The notes beneath the pieces were generated by a model, which saw only the letters and a program-made list of their open reading frames with translations, searched no databases and had not been told where the DNA came from. A program made the position numbers and the translations under genes. A stretch of DNA of 64,000 nucleotides, taken from the NCBI GenBank assembly GCA_030765505.1, contig JAVCCL010000020.1, positions 28,538-92,537 on the forward strand, written 5' to 3'. Below are positions 6,296 to 64,000 of this stretch, in pieces (the first letter of the stretch is position 1; every line of letters begins with the position of its first letter). Origin of the DNA: Candidatus Kaelpia imicola. GTDB lineage: Bacteria > Omnitrophota > Gorgyraeia > Kaelpiales > Kaelpiaceae.

Positions 6296-7060
6296 ATGAT
6301 TCATCCCACCGTAATTATCAATAGCGGATCAAAGATAGCTTCTGATGTTGAGATAGGCCCTTATACCGTTATTGGTGGCGACGTTGAAATAGCATCAGGT
6401 ACAAAGATAGCATCTTTTTGCACTATTACAGGCTATACAAAGATTGGAAAAAACAATAATATCTTCTCTAATACTGTTTTAGGAAGTATTCCTCAGGATT
6501 TAAAATATAAGGGTGAGAAGAGCAATCTCATTATTGGAGATGGAAATAAAATAAGGGAGTTTGTAACTATGAACCCTGGGACTGGTGAGGGAGGTAAGAC
6601 CGAGATAGGTAATAATAATCTGATTATGGCTTATGCGCATATTGCACATGATTGTATAATAGGAAACAATGTTATTATAGCCAATGTTGGGACTCTAGCG
6701 GGGCATGTTGAGATGGAAGATGGTGCAATACTGGGTGGTCTTGCTGCGATACATCAGTTTGTCAGAGTTGGAAGATTAGCGATCATAGGAGGATGTTCTA
6801 AGGTTACTCAAGATATACCGCCTTTCTCTATGTGTGATGGTCATCCTGCCAAATTCAGAGGTTTGAACCTTGAAGGACTTAAAAGAGCAGGATATAGTGT
6901 TGAGGAGCGGATGATTTTAAAAAAGGTTTTTAAAGTCCTCTTTCTATCTAAGCACTCTCTATCAAATGCTATAGAGATTGTTTCTAAAGAGTATAAAAGC
7001 AGAGAGATAAATTCTCTGCTTGATTTTGTGGCTAAATCAAAAAGAGGTATATGCAGATAG
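6296..7060 (+). CDS. lpxA: Acyl-ACP--UDP-GlcNAc O-acyltransferase LpxA.
   Basis: 254 aa. Hexapeptide repeats followed by a C-terminal helical domain. IHPTVIINSGSKI at the N-terminus. Position after fabZ. Confidence 0.9.
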   Translation: MIHPTVIINSGSKIASDVEIGPYTVIGGDVEIASGTKIASFCTITGYTKIGKNNNIFSNTVLGSIPQDLKYKGEKSNLIIGDGNKIREFVTMNPGTGEGGKTEIGNNNLIMAYAHIAHDCIIGNNVIIANVGTLAGHVEMEDGAILGGLAAIHQFVRVGRLAIIGGCSKVTQDIPPFSMCDGHPAKFRGLNLEGLKRAGYSVEERMILKKVFKVLFLSKHSLSNAIEIVSKEYKSREINSLLDFVAKSKRGICR

Positions 7061-7857
7061 AGAGAGTTGGTCTTATAGCGGGAGGTACAGAGTATCCTCT
7101 TTTAGCGGCGAAGCAGGCTAAATTGAAGGGAGTTCAAGTCTATGCTGTTGCTATCAAAGGTTTGACGTTATCTGAGCTTGAGAGAGAAGTGGAAGATTTA
7201 ATCTGGATAGAACTTGGTCAGTTTAAACCTTTAATAGATTTTTTCAAAAAATATGAGATATCATCTGCTATTATGGCAGGCAATGTTAAAAAAGAAGATC
7301 TATTAAAACATTTTAAGCTTGGTCCTCGAGTTTTTGCCATGATGAAAGGTTTTACTAATAAATCAGATATGAATCTACTTGATATAGTTGCTAATGAGCT
7401 AAAAAAAGTAGAAATTAAATTGCTAGATGCTAGAACTTTTCTGGATGACTATATTGTCAAGAAGGGTTGTTTGACGCAGAAGCCCCCAACAGATAAAGAA
7501 TGGGAAGATATTCGTTTTGGTTGGGATTTAGCAAAGGCGGTATCTTCTTTCGATGTCGGTTTAACTGTTGTTGTTAAAGATAGAGTAGCTCTGGCAATTG
7601 AGGCTGTTGAGGGAACTAATGAGGCTATTAAGAGGGGGGCAAATCTTGGCGGAGAAGGATTTGTTGTTGTAAAAGTGGCACGGCCTAATCAAGATATGAG
7701 ATTCGAGCTTCCTGTTGTCGGACTTGATACCATAAAGTTGTTAAAGAAGCTTAAAGCATCTATTCTTGCGATCGAGGCTGATAAGACTCTGTTTTTTGAT
7801 ATCCCTGATTCAATTAAAGAGGCAGATGGAGGCTCTATCTCTATAGTAGCGTTATAG
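7051..7857 (+). CDS. lpxI: UDP-2,3-diacylglucosamine hydrolase LpxI (DUF1009 family), in the position usually taken by LpxH.
   Basis: 268 aa. DUF1009-like sequence (RVGLIAGGTEYPLLAAKQAK..., FDVGLTVVVKDRVALAIEAVEGTNEAI). Overlaps the lpxA stop and lies immediately downstream of lpxA, as in Caulobacter-type lpxA-lpxI arrangements. Confidence 0.7.
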   Translation: MQIERVGLIAGGTEYPLLAAKQAKLKGVQVYAVAIKGLTLSELEREVEDLIWIELGQFKPLIDFFKKYEISSAIMAGNVKKEDLLKHFKLGPRVFAMMKGFTNKSDMNLLDIVANELKKVEIKLLDARTFLDDYIVKKGCLTQKPPTDKEWEDIRFGWDLAKAVSSFDVGLTVVVKDRVALAIEAVEGTNEAIKRGANLGGEGFVVVKVARPNQDMRFELPVVGLDTIKLLKKLKASILAIEADKTLFFDIPDSIKEADGGSISIVAL

Positions 7858-17906: not shown

Positions 17907-19280
17907 ATGTATCTTGTCGATACTCATTCTCATCTCTGGCATCCGGAGTTTAAATTTGATTTAAAAAGAGTGGTCAATAGAGCTAAAGAAAAGAGTGTTG
18001 AATACATAGTTGTATTAGGCGTTGATTTAGATACCTCTCTTAAATCCCTCTCTATTGCAAGAAAGTTCAAGAATATCTATGCTGCTGTAGGGTCTCACCC
18101 GCATAATGTAAAATCTTTTAAAGATAGAGATCTGCTGATTTTAAAGAAGCTGCTCAGGAGAAAGAAGGTTGTTGCTTTTGGGGAGATAGGCCTTGATTAC
18201 TACAGGAAGAGTTCAACTTCTAAGAACCAGATATCAATGTTGGAGAGACTGCTTGGACTATGGCAGGATTTTAACCATCTTCCGCTTGTTATACATAATA
18301 GAGATGCTGATGAGGATATATTATCAGTCCTGGATAACATAAAAAGATTTTCGCCTAAGGTTATTATGCATTGTTTCTCCGGAGATATTGATTTTTTAAA
18401 AAAGTGTCTAAAGAGAGGTTTCTATATATCCTATGCTACCAATCTGACGTTTAATCGAGATTTAAAAAAACTTATTAAGCATACACCATTGGATAGACTA
18501 TTGCTTGAGACAGACTCTCCCTATCTTGCGCCTTTAACAAGGAGAGGCGGTAGAAATGAACCTGCATTTTTAAAAGATTCTTTAGATATTGTTTTAAAAG
18601 AGAGATCGGTAACTGAAGAAGATCTCAGGCGGTCTCTAGCATTAAATTCTAAGAGGGTGTTCGGTATAGGGAGCATCAAGAGAGAACCCAAGTATCTGTA
18701 TAGATATAAGGATGGTCTATATATAAACCTTACAAATAGATGCAGCAACAGGTGTTATTTTTGCAGCGGTTTGGTCAGTGATTATTTTGCGGGGCATAAT
18801 TTAAGACTTAAGAGAGAACCTAAAATAGGCGAGGTTTTAAGGGCTATTGAAAAAGAGAAAGGATTTGATGAAGTTGCTTTTTGCGGCATAGGAGAACCTT
18901 TCTTTAAGTTTAGAGAGTTAAAAGAGATAGCTAAGGGTTTAAAAAGCAAGGGTTATAGAGTCCGCGTTATTACTAATGGATGCGGTAATTTAATCTCAAA
19001 AAGAAATCTCTTGCCCGAACTTAAAGGCTGTATCGACAGCATATCTATCAGTCTGAATGTCGAGGATAAAGATAAGTATAATTCTTTCTGTAATCCCGAT
19101 TTTGGAGATGATACTTTTAACAGAGTGATAGATTTTATTAAAGAGTCAAAAAAATATATACCTTGGGTAGAAGTAAGTTTTTTAGATATAGAGGGGTTCT
19201 CCCTTGAAAAAGCCAGGAAAATAACTGATGATTTGGGAGTTAAATGCAGAGTAAGGGCCTATAATTTGATTAAAGCCTGA
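17907..19280 (+). CDS. Fusion protein: TatD-family metal-dependent hydrolase (N-terminal, approximately 260 aa) plus a compact radical SAM domain (C-terminal, approximately 195 aa).
   Basis: TatD signatures (LVDTHSHL, histidines of GSHPHNV, FGEIGLDY, ETDSPYL). The C-terminal half has a CX3CX2C radical SAM cluster motif (NRCSNRCYFCSG) and a glycine-rich SAM motif (AFCGIGEPF). Confidence 0.8.
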   Translation: MYLVDTHSHLWHPEFKFDLKRVVNRAKEKSVEYIVVLGVDLDTSLKSLSIARKFKNIYAAVGSHPHNVKSFKDRDLLILKKLLRRKKVVAFGEIGLDYYRKSSTSKNQISMLERLLGLWQDFNHLPLVIHNRDADEDILSVLDNIKRFSPKVIMHCFSGDIDFLKKCLKRGFYISYATNLTFNRDLKKLIKHTPLDRLLLETDSPYLAPLTRRGGRNEPAFLKDSLDIVLKERSVTEEDLRRSLALNSKRVFGIGSIKREPKYLYRYKDGLYINLTNRCSNRCYFCSGLVSDYFAGHNLRLKREPKIGEVLRAIEKEKGFDEVAFCGIGEPFFKFRELKEIAKGLKSKGYRVRVITNGCGNLISKRNLLPELKGCIDSISISLNVEDKDKYNSFCNPDFGDDTFNRVIDFIKESKKYIPWVEVSFLDIEGFSLEKARKITDDLGVKCRVRAYNLIKA

Positions 19281-43501: not shown

Positions 43502-44587
43502 ATGTTCTATAGGATAATTTACCCTTTAAAAGATATTTTTTTTGGTTTTAACCTTTTTAAATACATTACTTTTCGTTCAATCGTTGCATCAGGATGTTCT
43601 TTTTTTATCTTCATCCTCTTCTATCCAAAGTTTGTACAGTATCTAATTAAAAGAGGTTTGATTGAAAATGTGAAAAGGGAGAAATGCGAGAAGCTCTATA
43701 AGTACCATGTTCACAAAGAAGGTGTTCCCACCTCAGGCGGTATCCTGATAATATTCTCAACTATTATTGCTACCCTGGTTTTTGGGGATGTTTTAAATCA
43801 TTATGTACAGATTGCCTTGTTGGCTTTTCTCTCTCTGGGGGCTTTGGGTTACTGGGATGATATATCTAAAATTAAGAATCAGAAGAGAGGAATATCGAGA
43901 AGATCTAAGATATTAGTTCAATCTCTGGTAGGCGTTATTGTCGGAGGCTATCTCTATTTAAGACCGGATTACAGTCCGGCGTTAGAAGTTCCTTTTTTAA
44001 AAGATTTTATTTTTAACATCGGTATTCTCTATATCCTTTTTGTAGTACTTGTTATTGTAGCTACCTCTAACGCTGTAAACCTCACCGATGGTCTGGACGG
44101 TTTGGCTGTCGGTTCTGTCATAATAGCAGCAATTGCTTTTGCGGTAATGGCATATCTTGCCGGCCATTTTAAGCTGAGCCACTATCTTTTGATCTCTTAT
44201 GTAGAAGGATCTGGGGAGCTCGCTGTATTTCTATCTGCATTGGTAGGAGCTTGCTTTGGTTTTCTTTGGTATAATGCCTATCCGGCTGATATTTTTATGG
44301 GTGATAGCGGCTCTATGGCCTTAGGAGGTGCTATAGCCACTGTTGCAGTGGTTATAAAAAAAGAGCTTCTTCTGTTGATAATAGGAGGTCTCTTTGTAAT
44401 TGAAACCATCTCTGTTTTAATTCAGGTTTTAAGTTTTAAAACGCGGGGTAAGAGGGTTTTTTATTTTGCTCCAATACATCATCATTTTCAGATTAAAGGT
44501 TGGGCGGAGCCTAAAATAATAGTTCGCTTCTGGATTATAGCTATTCTTTTTGCTCTTTTGAGTTTACTTACTTTGAAGTTGAGATGA
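43502..44587 (+). CDS. mraY: Phospho-N-acetylmuramoyl-pentapeptide transferase MraY.
   Basis: PNPT superfamily motifs (NAVNLTDGLDGLA, MGDSGSMALGG, HHHF). 10 TM helices. 361 aa. Confidence 0.9.
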   Translation: MFYRIIYPLKDIFFGFNLFKYITFRSIVASGCSFFIFILFYPKFVQYLIKRGLIENVKREKCEKLYKYHVHKEGVPTSGGILIIFSTIIATLVFGDVLNHYVQIALLAFLSLGALGYWDDISKIKNQKRGISRRSKILVQSLVGVIVGGYLYLRPDYSPALEVPFLKDFIFNIGILYILFVVLVIVATSNAVNLTDGLDGLAVGSVIIAAIAFAVMAYLAGHFKLSHYLLISYVEGSGELAVFLSALVGACFGFLWYNAYPADIFMGDSGSMALGGAIATVAVVIKKELLLLIIGGLFVIETISVLIQVLSFKTRGKRVFYFAPIHHHFQIKGWAEPKIIVRFWIIAILFALLSLLTLKLR

Positions 44588-51923: not shown

Positions 51924-53102
51924 ATGCTCAAGTATGCTCTAGATATTGGCTCTACAAAATTGAGATTTGCTGCTGCAGGTTCGACAGATAGTGAATTGAA
52001 AATTTTGGGATATTTAACATCCAAAGTAGAGGGTTATTCAGGAGGAGTAATAACTGACTATAAGAAGTTGTTTTTTTCTATTTTAAAAATTATAAAAGAG
52101 TTCGAAAAACAATATAATAGTAAACCTAAAAAGATTTTGCTTAACTGTTCTCATCCGGATAGTAAGTTTTATCATTTGCGAGAGGTTTTCCAAAGAGATA
52201 TTTCTGAGCGGCCGATTTCGAATAAAGAGTTAAGGCGTTTAAGGAGCCAAGTCTTGCAGGATAAGATCGGCCTTGAAGAGGAAAAGATATTAATTCAGAT
52301 CGAAGAGTATATTATAGACGGGCAGAGAGGAGTTATAAGCCCAGAGAGGATGGTTGCCAGAAGCATAGAGGTTCTACTCAATGTGATCACTGTCCCAGTT
52401 AATTTTTTTAATAATATTCTTTCTATTTTTTCAGAGATAGGGATAGAGTTGGAAGCTATTATTCCAGAGGCTATAGCCAAGGCTAGTCTCTATTTGGATC
52501 CAGAAGATAAGAAGGCAGGCGTAATGCTTTTGGATATTGGATGGTCTAAAGCTAAGATGGTTCTCTTTGAAGGCAGCGTATTAAAAAATAGCATTGTTTT
52601 TGAAAGTGGTTTTAATGATATTTTCAAAAGATTAAAAGGGATATATCATTTAGATGATCTAGAAGCAGACAAGGTTTTAAATGAAGCTTTGGTTACAGAG
52701 AAAGAGAGTATAATGCTTCAAAGCGAAGAAGGCATAAAAGAGGTCTCTGTTGAAAATGTATGCCAGATTATAGAGAGGGGTTTTAGGAAGAACCTCTATT
52801 TTATTAAAAAGGCTATGGACTCAAAAGATATCTCTCATCTTCTTGCAGGAGGAATATTTATAACAGGAGGTTCTATTTTAAAATATCCAAACTTAAAGGA
52901 GATTGCGGCGGAAATTTTAAAACAACCAGTTATTGTCAAACAGAATAAAATATTTTCTCTGTCACCAGATTATGCAACTGTGATTGGAATGTTGAGTTAT
53001 TCATTTCAAGAGGAGAAAAAGTTTAATGAAAGAGATAAGTGTTGTAGTCTCGTAAAAAAAGGTTTAGGTAAGATTTATCAAATCTTCGATAAGTATTTTT
53101 AG
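51924..53102 (+). CDS. ftsA: Cell division protein FtsA (actin-like ATPase).
   Basis: N-terminal phosphate-1 motif (ALDIGSTKLRFA). Second ASKHA motif (MLLDIGWSKAKMVLF). Glycine-rich adenosine motif (FITGGSIL). 392 aa. Confidence 0.8.
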   Translation: MLKYALDIGSTKLRFAAAGSTDSELKILGYLTSKVEGYSGGVITDYKKLFFSILKIIKEFEKQYNSKPKKILLNCSHPDSKFYHLREVFQRDISERPISNKELRRLRSQVLQDKIGLEEEKILIQIEEYIIDGQRGVISPERMVARSIEVLLNVITVPVNFFNNILSIFSEIGIELEAIIPEAIAKASLYLDPEDKKAGVMLLDIGWSKAKMVLFEGSVLKNSIVFESGFNDIFKRLKGIYHLDDLEADKVLNEALVTEKESIMLQSEEGIKEVSVENVCQIIERGFRKNLYFIKKAMDSKDISHLLAGGIFITGGSILKYPNLKEIAAEILKQPVIVKQNKIFSLSPDYATVIGMLSYSFQEEKKFNERDKCCSLVKKGLGKIYQIFDKYF

Positions 53103-53105
53103 TCT

Positions 53106-54215
53106 GTGAAAATACTTCAAATAATTACTCACCTGGAGATAGGCGGTGCTCAAAAAGCAACTCTTCTTTTATCTCAAGAACTTATAAATAGAGGCCACGA
53201 GGTTGTTGTTTTATCTTCTGCCCAAGGCGGATTATTAAAAGAGTTTAAAGAAAAATTAGGTCCAAATTTTAGAAGTTTATGTTTTTTAAAAAGAGGTATA
53301 AATCCTATTTTTGACCTTTTAGCTTTTTTCTCAGTTTTCATCTATGTAAAAGAACTCAGTTTTGATCTGATCCATACGCACTCTTCTAAAGCCGGCATTT
53401 TAGGGCGCTGGGCTGCTCTCTTCTCATCTGTCAATTCTGTCCATACTGTCCATGGTTTTGCTTTTCATGATTATCAAAATTTTATTTTGAGATACTGTTT
53501 TATTTTGATTGAAAGAGTTACAGCTTTTATATCGGGTAAGATCATATTTGTATCCGAAGAGGTTAAAAAAAAGGCGTTTAAGAATTTTATAGTAACTACC
53601 GAAGAGAAAACAGAGGTTATCTATGAGCTTGTCAAGATTGATCCGCCTGAGCATAGAATAAAAAATAAAGATTTTTTTACAATAGGTATGGTTGCCCCGT
53701 TGAAAGAGCAGAAGAGGCCCGAGGATTTTCTGAAATTTGCGGTATCTTTAAGCAGAATACGCAAAGATGTAAGGTTTGTTTTAGTGGGGGATGGTAAATT
53801 GAGGCCAAAGCTGGAGATAGACGCGAAGAGATCTGGCATTCTATGTAAAGTTGAATTTAAGGGTTGGAGAGATGATGCTTATACCATAATGCAATCTTTT
53901 GATATCTTTGTGCTTACCAGCATCTTCGAGGGTCAACCGCACGTAATAATAGAAGCAATGTCGTTATCAATTCCGGTAATTGCTACTGCGGTTGATGGAG
54001 TAAGGGATTTGGTTTCTCAAGGTGAGAATGGATTTTTAGTCGAGCCTTGTAAGCCCCATGATATAGTATGCTTGGCTAATAGGCTATTAGATGATAAAGT
54101 ATTGAGAGAGTCTATTGGATCTAAAGGACGTAGCTATTTTGAGACTGAGAAAAGGTTTAACTACATTGAAAACATTAGTAAAATCGAAAAGCTGTATGAG
54201 TCTACAATGAAATGA
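53106..54215 (+). CDS. GT4-family (GT-B fold) glycosyltransferase.
   Basis: GTG start 3 nt after the ftsA stop. MKILQIITHLEIGGAQK N-terminus. C-terminal EGQPHVIIEAMSLSIPVIAT (E-X7-E motif region). 369 aa. Confidence 0.8.
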   Translation: MKILQIITHLEIGGAQKATLLLSQELINRGHEVVVLSSAQGGLLKEFKEKLGPNFRSLCFLKRGINPIFDLLAFFSVFIYVKELSFDLIHTHSSKAGILGRWAALFSSVNSVHTVHGFAFHDYQNFILRYCFILIERVTAFISGKIIFVSEEVKKKAFKNFIVTTEEKTEVIYELVKIDPPEHRIKNKDFFTIGMVAPLKEQKRPEDFLKFAVSLSRIRKDVRFVLVGDGKLRPKLEIDAKRSGILCKVEFKGWRDDAYTIMQSFDIFVLTSIFEGQPHVIIEAMSLSIPVIATAVDGVRDLVSQGENGFLVEPCKPHDIVCLANRLLDDKVLRESIGSKGRSYFETEKRFNYIENISKIEKLYESTMK

Positions 54216-55168
54216 ACAGAGTAGAAGTTTTCAACATAATGCTCATCTGTTTCGCGTTCTCTTTTTTCCTTTCTAAGTTTTTCTATAAAAAGAAAATCAA
54301 AGTAGGCAAAAAAGAGCAATCTACGCACGGTGGAGTTATAATTTTAGCGACAGTTTTTTTGGGAATATTAATATCTCCTTTAAGAGATACGTATTATGTC
54401 TGGAAGCTGTTCCTGCCTTTCTTTTTAATGTTTCTTTTAGGTTTTATCGATGATTATAAGCATCTCTCTCCTTATCCAAAGCTGATTGCCGAAATATTTA
54501 TAATACTTCTCGCGCTCTTTATGGGTTTTAAGACTGAAATCATGTACTTTCCTAGTTATCTTAATTATCTCGTCTCTTTGGTTTGGATTTTGATTTTAAG
54601 CAATGAATTTAATTTTTTAGATATAATGGATGGCCTCTCTTTGGGCAGCATCATAGCCGTGGCTTTGACGTTTACAATAATCGGTTTGATAAACTTTCAA
54701 CCTTTCAATCTTCTTTTTGCGGCAGTTGTTCTGGCCTCCTGCCTGGGTTTCTTTCCTTACAATTACCGTAAAGCATCTGCTTATCTTGGAGATAGCGGCA
54801 GTCTATCGCTGGGCTTGCTTATGGCTATTTTAGCTATATCGTTTAGTTATACGAGAGAAAATAGACCTATGGTCCTATTGACCCCTGTTATTATATTCGG
54901 GCTTCCTATTTTTGATTTTTTATATCTTACGATAAGAAGGGTCTGGCAACGGAAGTCTATTTTGAGAAAAAGTCCTGACCATCTTGCAATACTTATGCAT
55001 ATTAATGGAGCCTCTAGGAAAAGAGTAATATATAAGTTCTGGCTTATATCAGCAGGTTTTGCTTCTACAGCACTATTGCTTCAGTTCGGTTCGAGACTTT
55101 TAGGTGTTGTTGCATTGATTATCTCTATATTCCTTTTCTTTGAAGTTGCTTTACGATGCTATAAATGA
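54212..55168 (+). CDS. Polyprenyl-phosphate N-acetylhexosamine-1-phosphate transferase (MraY/WecA/WbpL PNPT family), a second PNPT paralog inside the dcw cluster.
   Basis: Multi-TM protein with a DD motif (GFIDDYK), NFLDIMDGL and LGDSGSLSLG. Short form of 318 aa. Overlaps the GT4 stop by 4 nt. Confidence 0.75.
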   Translation: MNRVEVFNIMLICFAFSFFLSKFFYKKKIKVGKKEQSTHGGVIILATVFLGILISPLRDTYYVWKLFLPFFLMFLLGFIDDYKHLSPYPKLIAEIFIILLALFMGFKTEIMYFPSYLNYLVSLVWILILSNEFNFLDIMDGLSLGSIIAVALTFTIIGLINFQPFNLLFAAVVLASCLGFFPYNYRKASAYLGDSGSLSLGLLMAILAISFSYTRENRPMVLLTPVIIFGLPIFDFLYLTIRRVWQRKSILRKSPDHLAILMHINGASRKRVIYKFWLISAGFASTALLLQFGSRLLGVVALIISIFLFFEVALRCYK

Positions 55169-56490
55169 AAAAGAGTGTAAATAATTTAATCCTTGGTTCA
55201 GGTATAACAGGGTTGAGCTGCGGCCTACATTTAGGAAATTTAAGTAATAAAAAAGGTGGATTTTCATCAGACTATTTAATCCTTGAAAAAGAGAAGGGTG
55301 TTGGAGGTTTAGCCCGATCTATCAAAAAGAAAGGTTTTGTATTTGACTATAGTGCTCATCTCCTGCATTGCAGGGATCCCTATTTTTCAAAATGGGTGGA
55401 GAATAATCTTAAAAAAAGTCTCAAGTTTCATAAAAGAAATGCCTGGGTCTACTCGCATGGGGTATTTACCAAATATCCTTTTCAGGCAAATCTCTATGGT
55501 TTGCCTAGAGATGTAATAAAGGATTGTCTTTTGGGCCTTTTGAGTTTGAATGGTTTTAGTGATAGTAAGCCCAATAATTTTGAAGAGTGGTGTTATAACA
55601 AATTCGGCAGCGGAATTTCTAAACACTTTATGCTTCCCTACAATGAAAAGTTTTGGAATATAGCAGCTAAAAAAATTACGCTAGAATGGATAGATGGTTT
55701 TATACCTCAGCCGCAGCTTAGGGATATGGTTAAAGGGGGATTTGAATATTCCCATAAAGAGTTTGGCTACCATAGCAAATTTTACTATCCTATTAATGAA
55801 GGGATAGAGCTTATAGTTAAGAAAATCAGTTCAAAATGCAGCAATATAGTACTCAAAGAAAAAGCAGAAAAGATAAACTTAAAAGAGAGATGGGTTTTAA
55901 CCTCTAGAGGCAGAAAGATTTATTACAATAATTTAGTCTCTACTCTTCCTATGGTGGATTTAAACGACATGATTATCGGAATCGATAGCAATATCAGTAA
56001 TCTTTTTCGCAAGTTAAAGTATATCTCTGTTATTAATGTAAATATGGGCATAAAACGGCCGAATATATCCGATAAAGACTGGGTCTATTTTCCGGAAGAC
56101 AACTTCTCTTTTTATCGTATTGGGTTTCCGATGAACTTTGCTCCTTCTTCTACACCTAGCGGTTTTAGCTCAATATATATAGATATCTCTTATTCAGGTT
56201 CTTTGGCTATCAACAAGAGAAAAGAGAGTATTATTGAACGGGTAAAAGCTGATTTGATCAAACTGGGTATTATTGGTGAAGAAGAGAGCATCCCGGTCGT
56301 GGACTATAATGATATTAAGTATGCTTATATACTCTATGATAAAAATTGGTCTCATGCTCGAGGTGGAATTATTGATTATCTTTTAAAAAATTCCGTATAT
56401 TCTGCTGGGAGATTTGGTTCCTGGAGCTATCTCTCTATGGAGGGGTGTTTTTTAGAGGGCAGGAGAATAGCCAATATATTAAAGAGATGA
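55165..56490 (+). CDS. FAD-dependent oxidoreductase, UDP-galactopyranose mutase / amine-oxidase-like.
   Basis: N-terminal dinucleotide-binding loop (ILGSGITGLSCGLHL...EKEKGVGGLARS). 441 aa. Overlaps the previous stop by 4 nt. Confidence 0.55.
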   Translation: MKKSVNNLILGSGITGLSCGLHLGNLSNKKGGFSSDYLILEKEKGVGGLARSIKKKGFVFDYSAHLLHCRDPYFSKWVENNLKKSLKFHKRNAWVYSHGVFTKYPFQANLYGLPRDVIKDCLLGLLSLNGFSDSKPNNFEEWCYNKFGSGISKHFMLPYNEKFWNIAAKKITLEWIDGFIPQPQLRDMVKGGFEYSHKEFGYHSKFYYPINEGIELIVKKISSKCSNIVLKEKAEKINLKERWVLTSRGRKIYYNNLVSTLPMVDLNDMIIGIDSNISNLFRKLKYISVINVNMGIKRPNISDKDWVYFPEDNFSFYRIGFPMNFAPSSTPSGFSSIYIDISYSGSLAINKRKESIIERVKADLIKLGIIGEEESIPVVDYNDIKYAYILYDKNWSHARGGIIDYLLKNSVYSAGRFGSWSYLSMEGCFLEGRRIANILKR

Positions 56491-56511: not shown

Positions 56512-57570
56512 ATGATCTTTGACGACCTATGTCTCTACCTAAGGCTCTATCCTGAAATTTTAAATCTTAGATTTGCGAGAGAGATGATATACTATCTCTT
56601 AAAAGGTGTTAGCAGGCATCCAATATCAATTAATTTTCTAATAACTTCTAAATGTAATTTTAAGTGCAAGATCTGTAGTTATTACGGTAATTCAGGGACT
56701 CATTTTTCAGAGCTGAGCTTTCAGGAATTTGTAGATTTCTTAGATCAGGTTCAAGCTTTTAAACCCTTGATTTTTTTAGGCGGCGGAGAGCCTTTTATAA
56801 GAGAAGATATATATTCCATGTTGGAGGAGATAGAGAAGAGAGAGCTTAAAGTGATAGTGTCGACAAATGGTTATTTGTTAGATTTAGATAGAATATCTTC
56901 TTTAAACTTAGATTCGCTCATCCTCTCTCTATATGGACCTGAGTCGATTCATGATAGTATTACTGGAGTTCCTGGTTCTTATTCTGTAGTTGTTAAAAAA
57001 ATAAAAAAGATAACAGCTGATAATATGGTTAAAAATTTAGTTGTATCTACAATCCTATTGCCTTCAAATTTCAAACATCTCTCTGAGTTCAGTGATTCTG
57101 TTTTTGCTTTAGGAGTTGATTCAATTAAAATTGAAAACCTTAATTATCTAACAGAAGAAGAGTTTGGGAGTTCTACTGAAGAGATGGCCGACCTTATTTT
57201 AAAACCCCATACTCTTGTTTTAGACAAGCATTGCTTCAGCAGAACCGATTTAGAGTATGCTTGGAACAGCATCAATGTTTTAAGAAGAAGATATAAAGGT
57301 AGATTATTTTTGAAGCCAGCTCTAAACAAGAGAGATTTTTTAAAATGGTATTGCGAGGGCAAAACTTTTAAGGGTTGTCATTTTATAAGACATTCTATCT
57401 TTGTCTCATCTTCCGGAGATATTATACCTTGTCAGTTTTTAAGTAAAACTAAGCTTGGAAAAATAGACAAAAATGTTGTAAAATACATATGGAACTCGAA
57501 GAGATATAATGATTTTAGAGAGTTTGTGCAAAGGACTGGCTTAGAAGTTTGTAAACGTTGTTGTAAATAA
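56512..57570 (+). CDS. Radical SAM enzyme with a C-terminal SPASM/twitch-like cysteine cluster.
   Basis: CX3CX2C motif (SKCNFKCKICSY). SAM-binding glycine motif (IFLGGGEPF). C-terminal cysteines (C...CQF...CKRCCK). 352 aa. Confidence 0.75.
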   Translation: MIFDDLCLYLRLYPEILNLRFAREMIYYLLKGVSRHPISINFLITSKCNFKCKICSYYGNSGTHFSELSFQEFVDFLDQVQAFKPLIFLGGGEPFIREDIYSMLEEIEKRELKVIVSTNGYLLDLDRISSLNLDSLILSLYGPESIHDSITGVPGSYSVVVKKIKKITADNMVKNLVVSTILLPSNFKHLSEFSDSVFALGVDSIKIENLNYLTEEEFGSSTEEMADLILKPHTLVLDKHCFSRTDLEYAWNSINVLRRRYKGRLFLKPALNKRDFLKWYCEGKTFKGCHFIRHSIFVSSSGDIIPCQFLSKTKLGKIDKNVVKYIWNSKRYNDFREFVQRTGLEVCKRCCK

Positions 57571-57583
57571 AAGGTTTTAAGTT

Positions 57584-58120
57584 ATGGATTTTGAACAAAA
57601 ATGGAAGAGGGCTGTAAAGAATACTGAAATAGAGAAAGGCTGGGTGGGCTATCTAAATACCAATTCGAGCACAACGCTCTCTTATATAATGCTCTCTGAA
57701 TCGATGCTTGATAATTCAGATACTGTTATCAGAAAAGGCAAGGTCGAAGTAACGCGACCCTTAATATACTTACCGGATAACAACCCTGTATTTGAAGGTT
57801 TTGAATTATCGAGTCAGAATCTATTTAATAGTTCTGTTTTGACTTTTCTTCTGTTGAGAGGAGTAAGTTTTCCTTCTTTAAAATACCAGAATAGTGTTTA
57901 CTCTCTGGATATTGACAATCTCTCTTTGACTGAGGCGGTTAAAAAGCATAAAAGAGAGCTTCAAAGATTGGAGGATGTTAAGACCGGTCTCATAGTAGGG
58001 TCTGATGACTGCTGGCATTACTCTCTTGCTATCTATGTTGCAGCTCTGACCTCTAAATCTGCCTCTAATGACATAGAGAGGTATCTTAAAGATTTAAAGA
58101 GTAGGTTTGAAGATAGGTAG
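57584..58120 (+). CDS. Hypothetical protein (178 aa) with no recognisable domain.
   Basis: ORF immediately downstream of the radical SAM gene (13-nt gap). No signal peptide or TM helix is apparent. Confidence 0.45.
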   Translation: MDFEQKWKRAVKNTEIEKGWVGYLNTNSSTTLSYIMLSESMLDNSDTVIRKGKVEVTRPLIYLPDNNPVFEGFELSSQNLFNSSVLTFLLLRGVSFPSLKYQNSVYSLDIDNLSLTEAVKKHKRELQRLEDVKTGLIVGSDDCWHYSLAIYVAALTSKSASNDIERYLKDLKSRFEDR

Positions 58121-58171: not shown

Positions 58172-59116
58172 ATGGAAGAGAGAGAAGTTTTTGCAAAAGT
58201 TAACAGTTTAATAGAGAACATCGAAAAAGTTATACTGGGAAAGCACGATGCCGTTCAACTGGCAGTAGCTGTATTTCTATCCGAGGGTCATCTATTGATG
58301 GAGGATGTTCCCGGAGTAGGTAAAACTGTACTTGCTAAGTCTATGGCTAAATCATTTTCGGCAAGCTTTAGGAGAATACAATTTACACCCGACCTTCTTC
58401 CTTCAGATGTTACGGGCAGCTATATATTTAACCAGAAAAATTCCGAATTTGAATTTAGGTCCGGTCCGGTCTTTGCTAATATAGTTATAGCTGATGAGAT
58501 TAACCGCGGTACTCCTAGGACGCAGAGCGCTCTTCTGGAGCCTATGGAGGAGTATCAGGTTACTGCGGATGGTAATACTTTTCAACTTGATAGGCCATTT
58601 TTCTTGATAGCTACTCAGAATCCCGTTGAGAGGGAAGGCACCTATTTTCTTCCTATCTCACAGCTGGACAGATTTCTGGTCAAGATGGGTATGGGGTATC
58701 CCGAAAAAGCTGAAGAGATTCAGATTCTTTTAGACAGAGAGAGAGAGGATCCTCTAAATAAAATTGAGGCTGTAATTACCAAAGAAGAAATTCTTGAGAT
58801 TCAAAAATTTGTAAAAGCTATTAAGGTGGATGCTAAGATATACGAATATGTTATCAGCATAACACAGACGACTCGTGAGACTGATAAACTTATTCTGGGA
58901 GCGAGCCCCAGGGCATCTCTTGATCTATTTAGGTTATCTCAGGCTCTGGCACTAATGGAGGAGAGAACATATTGTATTCCTGACGATGTTAAGAAAGCTG
59001 CTCCACTGGTTCTTGCTCATAGGGTTATACCGTCTTCACCTGCAAAGACAGAGATTGGTAATACTCAGGAGATAATTAAAAAACTAGTAAATGAAATCTC
59101 CGTTCCTATCCAATAA
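58172..59116 (+). CDS. MoxR-family AAA+ ATPase.
   Basis: Walker A motif (GVGKTVLAKSMAKSF). Walker B motif (VIADEINR). MoxR-type C-terminal helical domain. RBS AAAGGAGG upstream. 314 aa. Confidence 0.9.
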   Translation: MEEREVFAKVNSLIENIEKVILGKHDAVQLAVAVFLSEGHLLMEDVPGVGKTVLAKSMAKSFSASFRRIQFTPDLLPSDVTGSYIFNQKNSEFEFRSGPVFANIVIADEINRGTPRTQSALLEPMEEYQVTADGNTFQLDRPFFLIATQNPVEREGTYFLPISQLDRFLVKMGMGYPEKAEEIQILLDREREDPLNKIEAVITKEEILEIQKFVKAIKVDAKIYEYVISITQTTRETDKLILGASPRASLDLFRLSQALALMEERTYCIPDDVKKAAPLVLAHRVIPSSPAKTEIGNTQEIIKKLVNEISVPIQ

Positions 59117-60386
59117 TAAGGGTTGCTGTGTTTTAACAGAGTTTGGCTTATATGCTCTGATTGTAGCGGTATTTTTAACTTCTCTTGGTTTTATACTGCA
59201 GTCCAATCTTATCTATCTTGTAGCATCAGGACTCTGGGGGCTTGTTTTGACTGACTTTTTATTTTCTTTTCTCTCCTTGAGAGGAATAAGGGTTACAAGA
59301 TTTGCTCCGACTCATGCAGTTAGAGGTGAGGATTTTAAAATAAGAATAAGATTAGAGAATAGAGGGTTCTCTAAGTACTTAATAAGATTGACTGATAGTA
59401 GTTTTACTGAAAATATATCCGGGGTAGAGCTTCCTATTGTACGTAGTTTAAAAAACAGTGAGATTTTAGAGCTGGATTATATTATGAAAATTAAAGCAAG
59501 GGGTGTTCATAATCTTGAGTCTGTTCAGGCAGAGAGCAGTTTTCCTCTTGGTCTTTGGAGGAGGGTTATAAATTTTCCCTCCAGATCCAAAATTACCATA
59601 TACCCTGAATTTTACGAGGTGCCTCAATTTGCGGTATCTTATAGGGGTATGAGATCGGAGTTTGCAAATACATCTTCTAATAGGCCTGGTATGGGCGGTA
59701 ACTTTTTGCAGATACGAGAGTATCAATACGGGGATAGTTTAAAGAATATTCATTGGAGAGCAACGGCTAGAACAGGAAAGCTTATGGTCAAAGAGCTAGA
59801 GAAATTTACTCTTTCAAACCTTTCTATAGTATTAGATAGTTCCTCTAATATGGTTTTAGGATTGCTTGAAGAGTCCAATTTTGAATATGCAGTTAAAACA
59901 GCTGCAACTATAGCCAACAAAGCTTTGAGTACTCGCTATCATGTAAAGCTTATATACTACAATCAGATTAAAAAGAAGATCGAGTTTAAGAAGGCTTACG
60001 GCCGAATGACTCCAATATTAGACAGCCTTTCTAAGATAGGTACGACGGAGAGGATAAATGTCAAAGATCTCGTAGATGCTTCTATACCTGAGATTGAGAA
60101 GGAGTCTGTTGCGGTTTTTGTCTTACTCTCCCTTAACTCTGATGTTACTCAAAAAATCATACAACTTGCAAATCAGGGTATTGATTCTGTGCTTGTCGTA
60201 TTTGATCCCAGGTCTTTTGCCGCTGTTCTGGATAAGAAGATTGGGAATTTTTATAATGTCTTCTCCCAACTTATGAGCGGAGAAGCGTTCTATTTAACTG
60301 GTGAAGGTATAAGGGTGTATATGGTAAAACATGGCGATCGTATACCTGATGCGTTAAGTAGACCGCATATGTTTTTATCTTCTTAA
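59091..60386 (+). CDS. DUF58-family protein (vWA-like), the usual partner of MoxR ATPases.
   Basis: Two N-terminal TM helices. DUF58 signature (FLQIREYQYGDSLKNIHWRATARTGKLMVKELE). 431 aa. Confidence 0.85.
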   Translation: MKSPFLSNNKGCCVLTEFGLYALIVAVFLTSLGFILQSNLIYLVASGLWGLVLTDFLFSFLSLRGIRVTRFAPTHAVRGEDFKIRIRLENRGFSKYLIRLTDSSFTENISGVELPIVRSLKNSEILELDYIMKIKARGVHNLESVQAESSFPLGLWRRVINFPSRSKITIYPEFYEVPQFAVSYRGMRSEFANTSSNRPGMGGNFLQIREYQYGDSLKNIHWRATARTGKLMVKELEKFTLSNLSIVLDSSSNMVLGLLEESNFEYAVKTAATIANKALSTRYHVKLIYYNQIKKKIEFKKAYGRMTPILDSLSKIGTTERINVKDLVDASIPEIEKESVAVFVLLSLNSDVTQKIIQLANQGIDSVLVVFDPRSFAAVLDKKIGNFYNVFSQLMSGEAFYLTGEGIRVYMVKHGDRIPDALSRPHMFLSS

Positions 60387-60387
60387 A

Positions 60388-63300
60388 ATGTTTTATATTA
60401 TTTCATTTTTACTGGTAAGCATTGGCATAACAGCTCTTCCGCTTATTGAAGGAGTGGGCTCCAGCCTGATTCTTGCAGGTTCTATTTTTACTTTTGGTTT
60501 CGTGTTGACGCAGCTGATTAAAAAATTCCACTTTTCAAAAAATGTTGCCAGAGCGTTACTCTTTATTGCCTTAATTATTGGGGTTGGAGCATTCTTTACT
60601 TCAGGTAATTCCGGAGAGTGGGCAATTGTATGGCTGATATGGTATCTTATCCTCTCTTTTCAGGTTATAAGCATCTTTAGCTCTAAAGATGTTAAGGGTT
60701 GGTTTAGCTCTTATCTTTTGAGTTTTATTCAGCTTTCTCTGGGCGGCATTTTTACAGAGAAGCTACTTTTCTTGGTCATCTTCTCTCTTTACCTGGCTTT
60801 ATCAGTATTCGGTTTCATTTTTTTGCTTCCTAAAATAGAGATACGGGACAAAATTTTAAAATTGATAAAACCCCGCTTAGATTTAGCAAAATGGGGTGCC
60901 TTAACAACCGTCAATGTCTTTTTTATAACAGGGTTAGTTTTTCTCATCTTGCCGAGGACTCAAAGCCCACTCTTTGCAGTTAAAAAAGAGATACATCTTG
61001 TTGAGAAGTTAAAAAAAGAAGTTGATTTTACAGAGGAGATGACAGAAGAAGAAGCTGTGAGCCTACCTGAGGAGATTGAGCTGGGAACTATATCCGAATT
61101 AAAAAATGAAAATAAGATGTTGATGTTGATAGAGACGGAGAGACCGTTTCTTTTTAGAGCCCAGGCTTTCAATTATTACGATGGCAGCAGTTGGATTAAA
61201 TACGGCAGTAAGTCCGTAACCATCAAAGTAAAAGATAATAAGATTAATTTTAAACCGCTCTATCTGAGAAAAGAACTCTTTGTTAAAACGACACCTGACA
61301 AGTTTTACCATCAAAAGTTTTATATTAAGAACTATTCTCAAAATCTTATTCTAAGCTCTTACCCTATTATAGGTCTATCTGGTTCAGATGTAGAAAAGAT
61401 TAAGATAGACCATTTTGAAAATATTTATTTACAGAGAAAACTTAAGTTTGGAGATGAATATGAGGTAATCTCTGTTGATAAGAGCTATCCTTCTAATTAT
61501 CTGAGGTCGCTGCCGAGGAAGTACCCCAGAGAGATTATGGATCTATACCTTCAGCTTCCGCCCAATATAGATAAAAGATTGATGGATTTGACTTCTAAGA
61601 TTTTAAAATATACACCCACCAATATTTACGATGAATTGATAACTCTTAGGAAATATTTGAAAGAGCATTGTATCTATAGTCGGTTAAATACCGGCAAAAG
61701 CCCGACGCTGTATGAATTCCTCTTTGATAAAAAGCCTGGTGATTGCGAGTATTTTGCAACAGCTTTGGCTTTAATGCTGCGTTATCGTAATATTCCTACG
61801 CGTTTTGTCATAGGGTTCTCAGGGGGGGAGTTTGATTCTCAGAAGAGAACCTCTATTATTTATGCAAAGAATGCTCATGCTTGGATAGAGGTTTTCTTCC
61901 CTACTATAGGATGGTTGCCCTGCGATGCAACCCCTAAGGCTCTTCTTCAAGAGCAGTGGGAAGAAGCCCCTAAGATGTTAGCCTTAAAACCTCAAGATTA
62001 TCCAGAGGATAGAGGATTTGCTGGCGAAAGCGGCAGCGGTGAGACGGCTGATTCAAAGCAGAGCTTAGAGAGGCAGGAGATTGCCGGGGAGGGTATTCCC
62101 GAGGAAGAGCTCTTGCCGCAGGATTATTATTTCAAAGATAGGTTATCTCAACATGGTTTTACTAAAGAGGAGATTGTTTTTTCAGAAGAATTTTTTGAAG
62201 AGGCGGCTACTCCTGCTGAATTAGCTGCCGAAGAAGAGGATCTATCCGGTCAAGGTTATACTGGAGATAAAGAGATAGCTACATTTGAAGAAGAGAGAGC
62301 CGAAGGCCTTTTAAGAGAGGATGAAGTAACCGAGGAGATTTTTACAGAAGAGGAGGCAGAGGAGTGGTTCTATAGAGAAGAAGGAGCGTTTAAAGAAGAG
62401 GAAGTAGAAGCAGAGACTGAATCAATAAGTGAGGATGATGTTTTTGAAGAAGTCGCTTTTTCAGAAGAAAGGGTAGAGACTGCTGTTAAAATAGAAAAGG
62501 AGCCGGCTGAAGGTGAGACTCTTGAAGAAGATTTAGCATCTTTTTATCAAGATAGTGAGGATTTAGGATTTACCGAAATAGCATCCGGGCTTGAACAGGA
62601 AGAAAAAGTTGTTGAAGAAGAAGTTTTGGAAGAAAAAAAATTAGCATCTCTGCCTAAAGAGCTTGAAGAAGGTTCAGTAAGAGTCGATTTAGAAGATGAA
62701 TTTAAAAAAGAAGATTTTGGCAAAGAGGAGGATCCTGCTGACTCTTCTTCTATTACGGAAGCTTCTTTAGAAGAAGGGATATCTGAACAAGAGTATCTTT
62801 CTGAAGAACTGTTATCTTCTGGTGATGTTGAGGTAGCGGAAAAAGACGTGCTCTCTGATGAAGGATTGACAATGGAAGACAGTGTTCCTTTGGAGCAAGA
62901 AGTGCTTCTGGATCAAGAGATTCAAGACCAAGAGATTGCTTCAGATCTATATCTGGATTCTTCTGTGTCGCCTGGAATTCCTATAACGGCTATGGACGAG
63001 GAAGAAGAGGGAGAGATTACAGAATTAATAGATGAAGAAGATGATATTATCCCTGATTTAGATATTGTCGAAGAGGAGGTTGCTTTAGAAGAGGATGTAA
63101 TATTAGAAGAACTGCCCGCTGAAGATCTGGTATCAGAAGAAGAATCATTAGAAGAGAGTGAAGAAGTTGCTTTTGAAGAAGATACAACATTGGAAGAGGA
63201 GATGGTTCAAGAGGATGATGTTTTTGAAGAAGTTTTAGAAGAGAGTGCGGAGACTATTATTAAAGAGGATGTGGTTGAGGGAGAGGTATCTGAAGAAGAG

Positions 63301-64000
63301 GATGTTTTGGGTGAAGTTGAGGTTGATAGCGAGAAAGAAGATTTAAAAATTGTTGAAGATATTGTACTAGAAGAGATAGGGGAGGCGGAAGAGTTTTTAA
63401 TTGAGGATATAGATGTTGCCCAAGAATTTACTCAAGCCGAAGAAATAATAGAAAATGATCTTCCTGAAAGAGAGATAGCTGCTTTAGATATCGGTACTGA
63501 AGTTAAAGAAGAAAAGCTCTTTGATGATATTCCCGAGATAGTTGAAGAGGAGTCTGTTCCAGAGGTATTATTGCCTGAAGATATTGAAGATAAGTTAGAA
63601 GATTCTCTGGGTAAGAATATTCTTTTTAAAGATGATTTTGAATTGATTGTTGAAGAAGATCTATCAAGGATTGAGGATGTTGCAGGAGAAGAGTTTGAGG
63701 CTGAAGATGTTTCAGTTGAAGATATGATCCCAGAAGAGGATTCAATTTCAGGTGAATTAGGCTTCTTGTTTAACATTTTAAAAGATAAGCTCAAAGAGTG
63801 GATTTTTGGATTCTCTTACTATACTCAAGCTCTAATAGTAGATTTTATTAAAGGTATATTTGTAGGTATTAAGAGTTTCATTTACGGAATAGGTGCTATC
63901 ATTTATAGTCATCTTAAAAATAATAAGACACCGTATTCTTTATCTATTGTTACATTCTTTGTGGCGTTTTTACTCTGGGCGCTGTTTAAAGAATTAATCA
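60388..64000 (+). CDS. Transglutaminase-like (TgpA-type) polytopic membrane protein with a very long acidic low-complexity insertion. 3' truncated by the window edge.
   Basis: ATG at 60388, one nucleotide after the DUF58 stop. Seven N-terminal TM helices (DUF3488-like). Transglutaminase Cys-His-Asp core (GDCEYFATALALMLRY...AHAWIEVFFPTIGWLPCDATP). Then a glutamate-rich stretch of roughly 590 aa and at least two C-terminal TM helices. The ORF is still open at 64000. Confidence 0.8.
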   Translation, partial: MFYIISFLLVSIGITALPLIEGVGSSLILAGSIFTFGFVLTQLIKKFHFSKNVARALLFIALIIGVGAFFTSGNSGEWAIVWLIWYLILSFQVISIFSSKDVKGWFSSYLLSFIQLSLGGIFTEKLLFLVIFSLYLALSVFGFIFLLPKIEIRDKILKLIKPRLDLAKWGALTTVNVFFITGLVFLILPRTQSPLFAVKKEIHLVEKLKKEVDFTEEMTEEEAVSLPEEIELGTISELKNENKMLMLIETERPFLFRAQAFNYYDGSSWIKYGSKSVTIKVKDNKINFKPLYLRKELFVKTTPDKFYHQKFYIKNYSQNLILSSYPIIGLSGSDVEKIKIDHFENIYLQRKLKFGDEYEVISVDKSYPSNYLRSLPRKYPREIMDLYLQLPPNIDKRLMDLTSKILKYTPTNIYDELITLRKYLKEHCIYSRLNTGKSPTLYEFLFDKKPGDCEYFATALALMLRYRNIPTRFVIGFSGGEFDSQKRTSIIYAKNAHAWIEVFFPTIGWLPCDATPKALLQEQWEEAPKMLALKPQDYPEDRGFAGESGSGETADSKQSLERQEIAGEGIPEEELLPQDYYFKDRLSQHGFTKEEIVFSEEFFEEAATPAELAAEEEDLSGQGYTGDKEIATFEEERAEGLLREDEVTEEIFTEEEAEEWFYREEGAFKEEEVEAETESISEDDVFEEVAFSEERVETAVKIEKEPAEGETLEEDLASFYQDSEDLGFTEIASGLEQEEKVVEEEVLEEKKLASLPKELEEGSVRVDLEDEFKKEDFGKEEDPADSSSITEASLEEGISEQEYLSEELLSSGDVEVAEKDVLSDEGLTMEDSVPLEQEVLLDQEIQDQEIASDLYLDSSVSPGIPITAMDEEEEGEITELIDEEDDIIPDLDIVEEEVALEEDVILEELPAEDLVSEEESLEESEEVAFEEDTTLEEEMVQEDDVFEEVLEESAETIIKEDVVEGEVSEEEDVLGEVEVDSEKEDLKIVEDIVLEEIGEAEEFLIEDIDVAQEFTQAEEIIENDLPEREIAALDIGTEVKEEKLFDDIPEIVEEESVPEVLLPEDIEDKLEDSLGKNILFKDDFELIVEEDLSRIEDVAGEEFEAEDVSVEDMIPEEDSISGELGFLFNILKDKLKEWIFGFSYYTQALIVDFIKGIFVGIKSFIYGIGAIIYSHLKNNKTPYSLSIVTFFVAFLLWALFKELI
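62000..63760 (+). repeat. GAA/GAG-rich coding low-complexity region (poly-acidic, glutamate-rich) with internal imperfect repeats.
   Basis: Hundreds of Glu/Asp codons. The exact 23-mer gaggatgatgtttttgaagaagt occurs twice (62431-62453 and 63211-63233), each encoding EDDVFEEV. Confidence 0.7.

Follow-up and report, generated by a model that had tools for sequence, protein, structure and literature searches.

Furanose sugars and the enzymes that synthesize them are absent from animals, and these enzymes are established drug targets. Among the closest described systems to the locus considered here are the pathways for Klebsiella O2a galactan I (WecA, Glf, WbbMNO, and Wzm/Wzt) and mycobacterial galactan (WecA, WbbL, Glf, and GlfT1/2). 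Their shared logic combines a polyprenyl-phosphate sugar-1-phosphate transferase (PNPT) as the primer enzyme, an adaptor glycosyltransferase, and a UDP-galactopyranose mutase (UGM) that supplies the furanose. In these pathways wecA and glf are unlinked and the galactofuranose (Galf) transferases belong to families GT2 or GT111; to our knowledge, every characterized pathway keeps its primer enzyme and mutase apart. A 64-kb stretch of DNA from Candidatus Kaelpia imicola, phylum Omnitrophota (assembly GCA_030765505.1, contig JAVCCL010000020.1, positions 28,538 to 92,537; hereafter "the window"), contains a three-gene module encoding a GT4-family glycosyltransferase, a PNPT, and a flavoprotein of the UGM family. 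In contrast to the galactan pathways, the PNPT and mutase genes are adjacent and co-evolving, and the window encodes no recognized Galf transferase. The module is made of known kinds of enzymes in a conserved, tightly coupled, and uncharacterized arrangement, with a UGM active-site loop that is not canonical. Literature searches on the module, on Galf in Omnitrophota or Nitrospira, and on lipid-linked Galf donors turned up nothing relevant, and no publication on the mutase family was found. Judged from sequence comparisons, it probably primes an undecaprenyl-diphosphate-linked surface glycan containing a furanose. Anoxic Ace Lake in Antarctica is the site from which the genus Kaelpia was described (PMC8542988).

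Family membership and active site of the flavoprotein

A reading of the window made from sequence alone (the sequence-only reading) had likened the flavoprotein to UGM or to amine oxidases, and the database names of its homologs are inconsistent ("protoporphyrinogen oxidase", "FAD-dependent oxidoreductase"). In Pfam, the protein matched only Amino_oxidase and NAD_binding_8, with no GLF domain (PF03275) at E ≤ 0.001. Its best NCBIfam models were unnamed PRK07208 families, and the protoporphyrinogen oxidase (PPOX) model TIGR00562 gave 30.5 bits against a cutoff of 97.85. Comparison of the single sequence with the Protein Data Bank returned Aspergillus fumigatus UGM (AfUGM) at E 1.4e-39 and Trypanosoma cruzi UGM (TcUGM) at 2.5e-37, followed by Escherichia coli Glf at 1e-7, aligned over residues 8-173 only, and PPOX at 0.19. 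A family profile of 32 sequences gave 1.5e-78 for UGM, 8e-13 for PPOX, and 1e-10 for bacterial UGM. An AlphaFold2 model (pLDDT 90.5, pTM 0.90) was compared with solved structures by Foldseek. The template modeling (TM) scores were 0.89-0.92 to AfUGM and TcUGM, with a root-mean-square deviation of 2.1-3.3 Å at 25% identity, vs. 0.75-0.79 to PPOX and 0.61-0.67 to bacterial UGM.

The active site was compared with UGM residues of assigned role (PMC3322874 and PMC4192007), and conservation was counted over 32 relatives by alignment. Residues G11, G13, and G16 of the FAD loop are invariant, as is H65 of the His loop, which corresponds to AfUGM H63, above flavin N5; H68 is a bacterial-type His at the position of AfUGM F66. 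In the uridine pocket, AfUGM Y104, Q107, F158, Y162, and N163 are represented by invariant Y104, Q107, F155, Y159, and N160, and AfUGM W167 by near-invariant W164 (31/32). The diphosphate ligands AfUGM R327, Y419, and Y453 correspond to invariant R318, Y388, and Y422. Other AfUGM residues are kept in invariant or nearly invariant form, namely R91 (R91), W315 (W306), Y317 (Y308), and R447 (R416). AfUGM N207 is retained as Asn in 26 of the 32 sequences, although the window protein has His there, and Y-L-S-M-E stands in place of the Y-E-V-G-N-Q segment.

The flavoprotein thus shares with AfUGM and TcUGM (EC 5.4.99.9) the three-domain fold, the FAD GxGxxG loop, the His loop, the uridine pocket, and the diphosphate ligands, together with the eukaryote-specific W315 and, in most members, N207. 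It differs in that proteins of the window type are bacterial, are ~60-70 residues shorter, carry Phe or Tyr in place of R182 and Phe in place of Y334, and have a C-terminal Y-L-S-M-E motif and an H-L-L-H loop that both resemble those of bacterial UGMs. The bacterial Glf and UNGM enzymes (E. coli Glf, Klebsiella pneumoniae UGM, and Campylobacter jejuni Cj1439) belong to the same superfamily and presumably share a common chemistry. However, only the first 170 residues show sequence similarity to them (E 1e-7 to 1e-10), and neither the TM scores nor the unmatched GLF domain places the flavoprotein among them. The example of Cj1439, which turns UDP-GalpNAc into UDP-GalfNAc, shows that this conversion is within reach of a UGM-family enzyme (PMC12096443).

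A redox enzyme of the amine-oxidase/PPOX type, for example one that oxidizes or desaturates a lipid-linked sugar or the lipid carrier, would be in keeping with the Pfam matches, the absence of a GLF match, the many homologs named PPOX or oxidoreductase, and the loss of an Arg from the mobile loop, or flap (see below). However, the profile match to UGM exceeds that to PPOX by 65 orders of magnitude, the TM score is 0.91 to UGM vs. 0.79 to PPOX, and the TIGR00562 score falls well short of its cutoff. The His loop is conserved together with the residues that bind uridine and diphosphate, and members of the family are fused to nucleotide-sugar enzymes (see below). Assignment as a PPOX or amine oxidase was rejected on this profile, fold, and residue evidence, and we regard a redox function as very improbable. 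Of the relationships considered in the sequence-only reading, that to UGM was borne out by profile, fold, and nucleotide-site residues, and membership in the PPOX or phytoene desaturase families was not. The flavoprotein therefore belongs to the UGM family by its fold and nucleotide site and is a predicted nucleotide-sugar pyranose/furanose mutase; we do not call it a UDP-Gal mutase.

A distinct PNPT and its GT4 companion

Two PNPTs were proposed for the window by the sequence-only reading, and both were recovered: a bona fide mraY (Table 1) and the module paralog, which matched PF00953 at 100.2 bits (cutoff 27). The motifs quoted for the paralog (GFIDDYK, NFLDIMDGL, and LGDSGSLSLG) are present in its translation. 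The paralog fell below the NCBIfam cutoffs for mraY (TIGR00445, 60.7 vs. 192), archaeal MraY (44 vs. 450), and wecA (TIGR02380, 35.4 vs. 326), and profile assignment makes it neither a WecA nor a MraY. An AlphaFold2 model (pLDDT 90.6) gave Foldseek TM scores of 0.75 to MraY (E 6e-9) and 0.70 to human GPT.

Alignment with E. coli WecA, the window MraY, and relatives showed that the paralog keeps D80, D81, K90, N131, N134, D137, D140, N184, D194, and H257. We take these to correspond to Aquifex MraY D117, D118, N190, D193, D196, N255, D265, and H324, a numbering consistent with the aligned spacing. Among 69 PNPTs encoded beside a mutase, D80/D81, N131, N134, D137, and D140 are invariant. The catalytic Asp set of the window protein is complete; because all catalytic Asp and Asn residues are retained, its catalytic machinery is intact. 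The last cytoplasmic loop reads S-P-D-H-L-A-I-L, with a consensus of S-x-D-H-x-A-L-R over the 69 partner PNPTs, whereas the same loop is R-Q-H-I-H-H in WecA and P-I-H-H-H in MraY; only the first His of the HHH motif is retained.

In comparison with WecA/TagO/WbpL and MraY, the module PNPT has the same fold, the DDxxK, NxxNxxDxxDG, and GD(S/T)GS motifs, the uridine-pocket Asn, and one His of HHH/HIHH. It differs in its length of only 318 residues, its S-x-D-H-x-A-L-R loop, and its obligatory pairing with a mutase gene. The NCBIfam cutoffs and the loop motif ruled out both a duplicate of MraY and an ortholog of WecA. These features define a distinct PNPT subfamily that travels with the mutase and, by its motif, has a donor-recognition loop of its own kind.

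The best solved homologs of the GT4 enzyme are PglA (E 1e-18) and WbnH (E 2e-16), both of which act at the second step on undecaprenyl-diphosphate-linked HexNAc. By homology, the GT4 is likely a second-sugar transferase acting on a lipid-diphosphate-linked monosaccharide.

Conservation of the module and the route of the furanose

The three open reading frames (ORFs) lie where the sequence-only reading had placed them (Table 1), and ATGA overlaps at both the GT4/PNPT and the PNPT/flavoprotein junctions indicate translational coupling of all three genes. A scan using one genome per species found 80 loci with the flavoprotein, and their neighbors were assigned by ORF calling and phmmer with the window proteins. 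The loci come from Omnitrophota, Elusimicrobiota, Nitrospirota, Acidobacteriota, TA06, Aminicenantes, and others. The PNPT gene lies directly upstream of the mutase gene on the same strand in 69 of the 76 loci with enough upstream sequence (91%). An orthologous GT4 adjoins the pair in 57/80 loci, scoring 160-244 bits vs. 23-93 for other GT4s there; in Omnitrophota its gene precedes that of the PNPT, and in Nitrospira and Elusimicrobia it follows that of the mutase. Pairwise-identity matrices correlated at r = 0.92 for PNPT and mutase (66 pairs) and at 0.74-0.76 for either enzyme with the GT4. The PNPT-mutase pair is therefore syntenic and co-evolving in at least five phyla (Omnitrophota, Elusimicrobiota, Nitrospirota, Acidobacteriota, and TA06). 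The mutase family as a whole comprises 1015 clusters at 50% identity (E ≤ 1e-30), mostly from uncultured phyla but with Nitrospira included. Several records of metagenome-assembled genomes in the set are labeled "uncultured Planctomycetia". Two of these loci (L009 and L012) are 81-83% identical, three others (L034, L057, and L072) are clearly Omnitrophota-like, and all five labels look unreliable.

Genes around the module are of the kind found in surface-glycan clusters. An ABC-2 permease and ATPase are encoded directly 3' of the mutase in four loci (L002, L003, L004, and L045), with other Omnitrophota among them, a likeness to the galactan pathways. Wzy_C-family proteins occur in L056 and L086, PMT_2 GT-C enzymes in L005, and a large cluster of GT4, GT2, and methyltransferase genes surrounds the module in Nitrospira (L050). 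In L004, a 4-epimerase-type short-chain dehydrogenase/reductase (SDR) is encoded between the PNPT and the mutase.

Gene fusions provided a second line of comparison. Eight proteins of ~700 residues (P0025, P0028, P0032, P0042, P0047, P0053, P0057, and P0244) join the mutase to a GT2 domain, and this domain, examined in P0028, matches Dol-P-Man synthase, GtrB, ArnC, PpgS, PgfS, and archaeal Dol-P-hexose transferase. A polysaccharide deacetylase is encoded 3' of the fusion gene in all three loci examined (L006, L090, and L091), and that of L006 matches TIGR03006 (XrtA-system type) at 310 bits. The surroundings of the fusion in L006 and L091 also include PMT_2 and GT87 GT-C enzymes together with a flippase-like protein, and L091 encodes in addition a UbiA enzyme resembling decaprenyl-phosphate phosphoribosyltransferase. 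These clusters appear to encode a pathway in the style of Arn/PpgS for an aminosugar, possibly a furanose, linked to a lipid phosphate. They resemble the Arn (ArnC/ArnD/ArnT) and PpgS/Rv3779 systems in pairing an ArnC/PpgS-like GT2 with a deacetylase and, in L006 and L091, in the accompanying GT-C and flippase-like proteins. They differ in that the deacetylase is of the XrtA-system type rather than ArnD, and the arrangement is absent from the window, so that it bears here only on what the mutase clade supplies. In the representative library, P0345 and P0387 carry an N-terminal RmlD-type reductase. This architecture is reminiscent of the Fcf1/Fcf2 route to dTDP-fucofuranose and suggests that such members make NDP-6-deoxyhexofuranoses. 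Both kinds of fusion fit a nucleotide-sugar mutase, and the GT2 fusion parallels the PNPT pairing because both partners move a sugar from UDP to polyprenyl phosphate. Separately, a 1551-residue protein (P0304) combines the mutase with DUF707. A GT1_4::mutase fusion (P0376) was considered as a link to the module GT4 and rejected, the domains being unrelated.

In the pathway that we propose, the flavoprotein would use reduced FAD to interconvert a UDP-pyranose and the thermodynamically disfavored UDP-furanose. Following UGM chemistry, reduced FAD would attack C1 of the UDP-pyranose and displace UDP, which would be held by R318, Y388, and Y422; the ring would then open, reclose as the furanose, and rebind UDP. 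The PNPT would move the sugar-1-phosphate to undecaprenyl phosphate on the inner side of the membrane by means of its DD/Mg2+ site and the D137/D140 catalytic pair, and the PglA/WbnH-like GT4 would add the second sugar. Extension and export of the lipid-diphosphate-linked oligosaccharide would fall to genes elsewhere, relatives of the module having Wzm/Wzt-like ABC exporters, Wzy_C, and more glycosyltransferases. The pathway would end in a surface polysaccharide of O-antigen-like type, made by a lipopolysaccharide (LPS)-bearing diderm. An undecaprenyl-phosphate-linked glycan, possibly with a furanose, had been suggested from the sequence alone; it is the best-supported reading, as the PNPT residues and the UGM assignment hold.

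An alternative is that an ordinary WecA works beside an ordinary Glf. The PNPT would then make undecaprenyl-diphosphate-linked GlcNAc, a plain UGM would feed UDP-Galf to the GT4 or to a remote galactofuranosyltransferase, and the adjacency would reflect a shared polysaccharide operon. Galf glycans begin in this way in K. pneumoniae galactan I, E. coli O16, and mycobacterial galactan, and glf adjoins wbbI in E. coli K-12. The automated names of the PNPT homologs (UDP-GlcNAc:undecaprenyl-phosphate GlcNAc-1-phosphate transferases), the SDR within the L004 pair, and the conservation of the GT4 alongside the pair also fit this arrangement. However, the PNPT reaches barely a tenth of the WecA cutoff and lacks the HIHH motif, the pair stays adjacent and closely correlated despite variable surroundings, the usual flap Arg is absent from the mutase, whose sugar-side residues are also altered, and the GT2 fusions point to direct handover to a polyprenyl-phosphate transferase. 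We consider the WecA-Glf explanation possible but on balance doubtful.

Within the furanose-priming reading, the enzyme that consumes the furanose could be any of several. Direct handover of the furanose nucleotide to the PNPT, which would pull the unfavorable equilibrium forward, is the view that we favor, if tentatively, because the mutase is almost always tied to an enzyme that transfers sugar from UDP to polyprenyl phosphate (a PNPT, or a Dpm1/ArnC/PpgS-like GT2 in the fusions). The GT4 is a less likely but still credible consumer, and another glycosyltransferase is unlikely; the remaining probability goes to a flavoprotein that is not a mutase. The deacetylase association and the HexNAc preference of PNPTs make it a reasonable guess that the sugar is not Gal but a 2-acetamido sugar, for example N-acetylgalactosamine (GalNAc). 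A more far-reaching and speculative proposal, to which we give perhaps a one-in-several chance, is that the PNPT represents a new specificity class that takes the mutase-made furanose nucleotide, plausibly UDP-GalfNAc, and forms an undecaprenyl-diphosphate-furanoside. The mutase clade would then be a bacterial lineage related to eukaryotic UGMs that loads furanoses onto polyprenyl phosphate through a PNPT or a fused GT2.

Several observations weigh against a module that primes a furanose-containing glycan. Genes for a flippase, a polymerase, a ligase, and an ABC exporter are all missing from the 64-kb window, and the mutase-family proteins surveyed included no fusion to a PNPT. We know of no PNPT that uses a furanose nucleotide, and the furanose user could just as well be the GT4 or a glycosyltransferase whose gene lies elsewhere. 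At the Mg2+-site position of D194 (equivalent to MraY D265), the 69 partner PNPTs have Asp in 48, Asn in 20 (G-N-S-G-S, including L002 and L004), and Lys in 1. The mutase family has Phe at the position of AfUGM Y334, and N457 is also altered. The Arg of the mobile loop (AfUGM R182, TcUGM R176, and KpUGM R174 of K. pneumoniae) aligns to F179, and this alignment-based position is Phe in 25, Tyr in 6, and Leu in 1 of the 32 sequences. Every UGM studied either requires the mobile-loop Arg or is strongly activated by it; AfUGM R182A loses ~1600-fold in kcat/Km, and KpUGM R174A is inactive (PMC3322874). Given these effects, the flap-Arg change predicted by the alignment is a real departure from the defining features of UGMs, and UDP-Gal is not established as the substrate because the canonical Arg is missing at the aligned position. 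The nearest conserved basic residue is K/R198 in the second mobile loop (basic in 27/32), which could be the sole semiconserved substitute; K/R198 or R51 are candidate replacements for the flap Arg.

Chromosomal setting in Kaelpia and implications

Nearly every gene of the window is on the + strand. The division and cell wall (dcw) genes form a complete cluster in the order mraZ-rsmH-ftsL-ftsI-murE-murF-mraY-murD-ftsW-murG-murC-murB-ddl-ftsQ-ftsA, and the GT4-PNPT-mutase module follows directly (Table 1). Only 3 nt separate the ftsA stop codon from the GTG start codon of the GT4 gene, at the place where ftsZ would normally be expected. Scans of this junction for promoters and terminators gave nothing above shuffled sequences and no credible terminator. 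A tblastn search with E. coli FtsZ found no match in the window or in the loci of its clade (L001, L009-L011, and L092), and no ftsZ was present in the inspected 10-kb flank of L092. Published surveys report that ftsZ is generally retained in Omnitrophota (PMC12283558), and the gene probably lies elsewhere in this genome.

Table 1. Coordinates and assignments of features in the window
Feature	Coordinates	Strand	Length	Matches and remarks
GT4-family glycosyltransferase (GT-B, retaining)	53106-54215	+		PF00534, PF13692, PF13439
PNPT (MraY/WecA superfamily paralog)	54212-55168	+	318 aa	PF00953
FAD enzyme, UGM family, eukaryote-like type	55165-56490	+	441 aa	
Divergent ftsA, last dcw gene	51924-53102	+		TIGR01174 124 bits (cutoff 176); SHS2_FTSA and FtsA Pfam domains
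Bona fide mraY, first PNPT of the window (contrast)	43502-44587	+		TIGR00445 363 bits (cutoff 192)
Radical SAM/SPASM protein	56512-57570	+	352 aa	PF04055, PF13186; below cutoff on every NCBIfam model
Conserved hypothetical protein	57584-58120	+	178 aa	No Pfam or NCBIfam match
MoxR AAA+ ATPase, DUF58 protein, and TgpA-like membrane transglutaminase	58172-64000			Downstream of the module
Lipid A genes	4974-6290 and 7051-7857			LpxC-FabZ fusion protein of 438 aa; LpxI instead of LpxH
TatD-type DNase domain and radical SAM domain in one ORF	17907-19280		457 aa	

This position raises the question of a peptidoglycan-attached or septum-specific polymer tied to division, comparable to mycobacterial linker-galactan or to wall teichoic acid linkage units, which would explain a dcw site at the expected place of ftsZ. 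The close junction with ftsA and the missing terminator are in line with such a role, as are the absence of ftsZ from the window and the clade loci and the retention of the ftsA-GT4-PNPT-mutase order in five related genomes (L001/L010, L009, L011, and L092), down to 56% identity. However, dcw genes occur at only 3 of the 80 module loci, all of them close relatives of the window in the Kaelpia/Saelkia clade, and all lineages outside this clade carry the module within glycan clusters of the O-antigen-like or ABC-exporter type. The window showed no LCP-family ligase, and ftsA and the module of L092 lie 236 nt apart. A septal polymer is therefore improbable, its support failing because the dcw linkage is limited to one clade. 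The position of the module behind ftsA is a lineage-specific rearrangement, a clade accident of gene order that brings cotranscription with dcw genes and is not evidence of septal function. Of the envelope- or septum-associated polymer envisaged in the sequence-only reading, the surface glycan is favored, and the division link proved positional only and confined to one small clade. The window also encodes bamA, skp, lpxD, an lpxC-fabZ fusion, lpxA, lpxI, and lpxB, and the organism is therefore an LPS-bearing diderm.

Downstream of the module, the radical SAM/SPASM gene occupies the same position in L001, L009, L012, and L092 and accompanies the module only in the Kaelpia/Saelkia clade. Within that clade the gene for the 178-residue protein always follows directly 3'; orthologs of exactly 178 residues occur in L001 and L092, and L012 has an ORF of the same size at the same position. 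The two could be a maturase-partner pair or glycan-modifying enzymes. The block extending from the radical SAM/SPASM gene through the 178-residue protein, MoxR, and DUF58 to TgpA recurs in L001/L010, in L092, and, without ftsA, in L012. Many other loci from Omnitrophota (L016, L017, L030, L041, and L059) have tandem radical SAM genes next to the module, and the MoxR-DUF58 pair adjoins it also in the distant loci L002 and L014. The TgpA-like ORF exceeds 1200 codons, runs past the end of the window, and includes a Glu/Asp-rich low-complexity region of ~600 residues.

The assignments presented here correct the annotation of proteins often labeled "protoporphyrinogen oxidase", which belong to the UGM family. 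In structure, these bacterial proteins match eukaryotic UGM more closely than canonical bacterial Glf does, a relationship that bears on the origin of the eukaryotic enzyme. The wide distribution of the GT4-PNPT-mutase triad may point to an envelope glycan primer shared by these lineages, possibly with a new PNPT donor specificity. If the PNPT does use a furanose nucleotide, the product would be the first lipid-diphosphate-linked glycan primed with a furanose.

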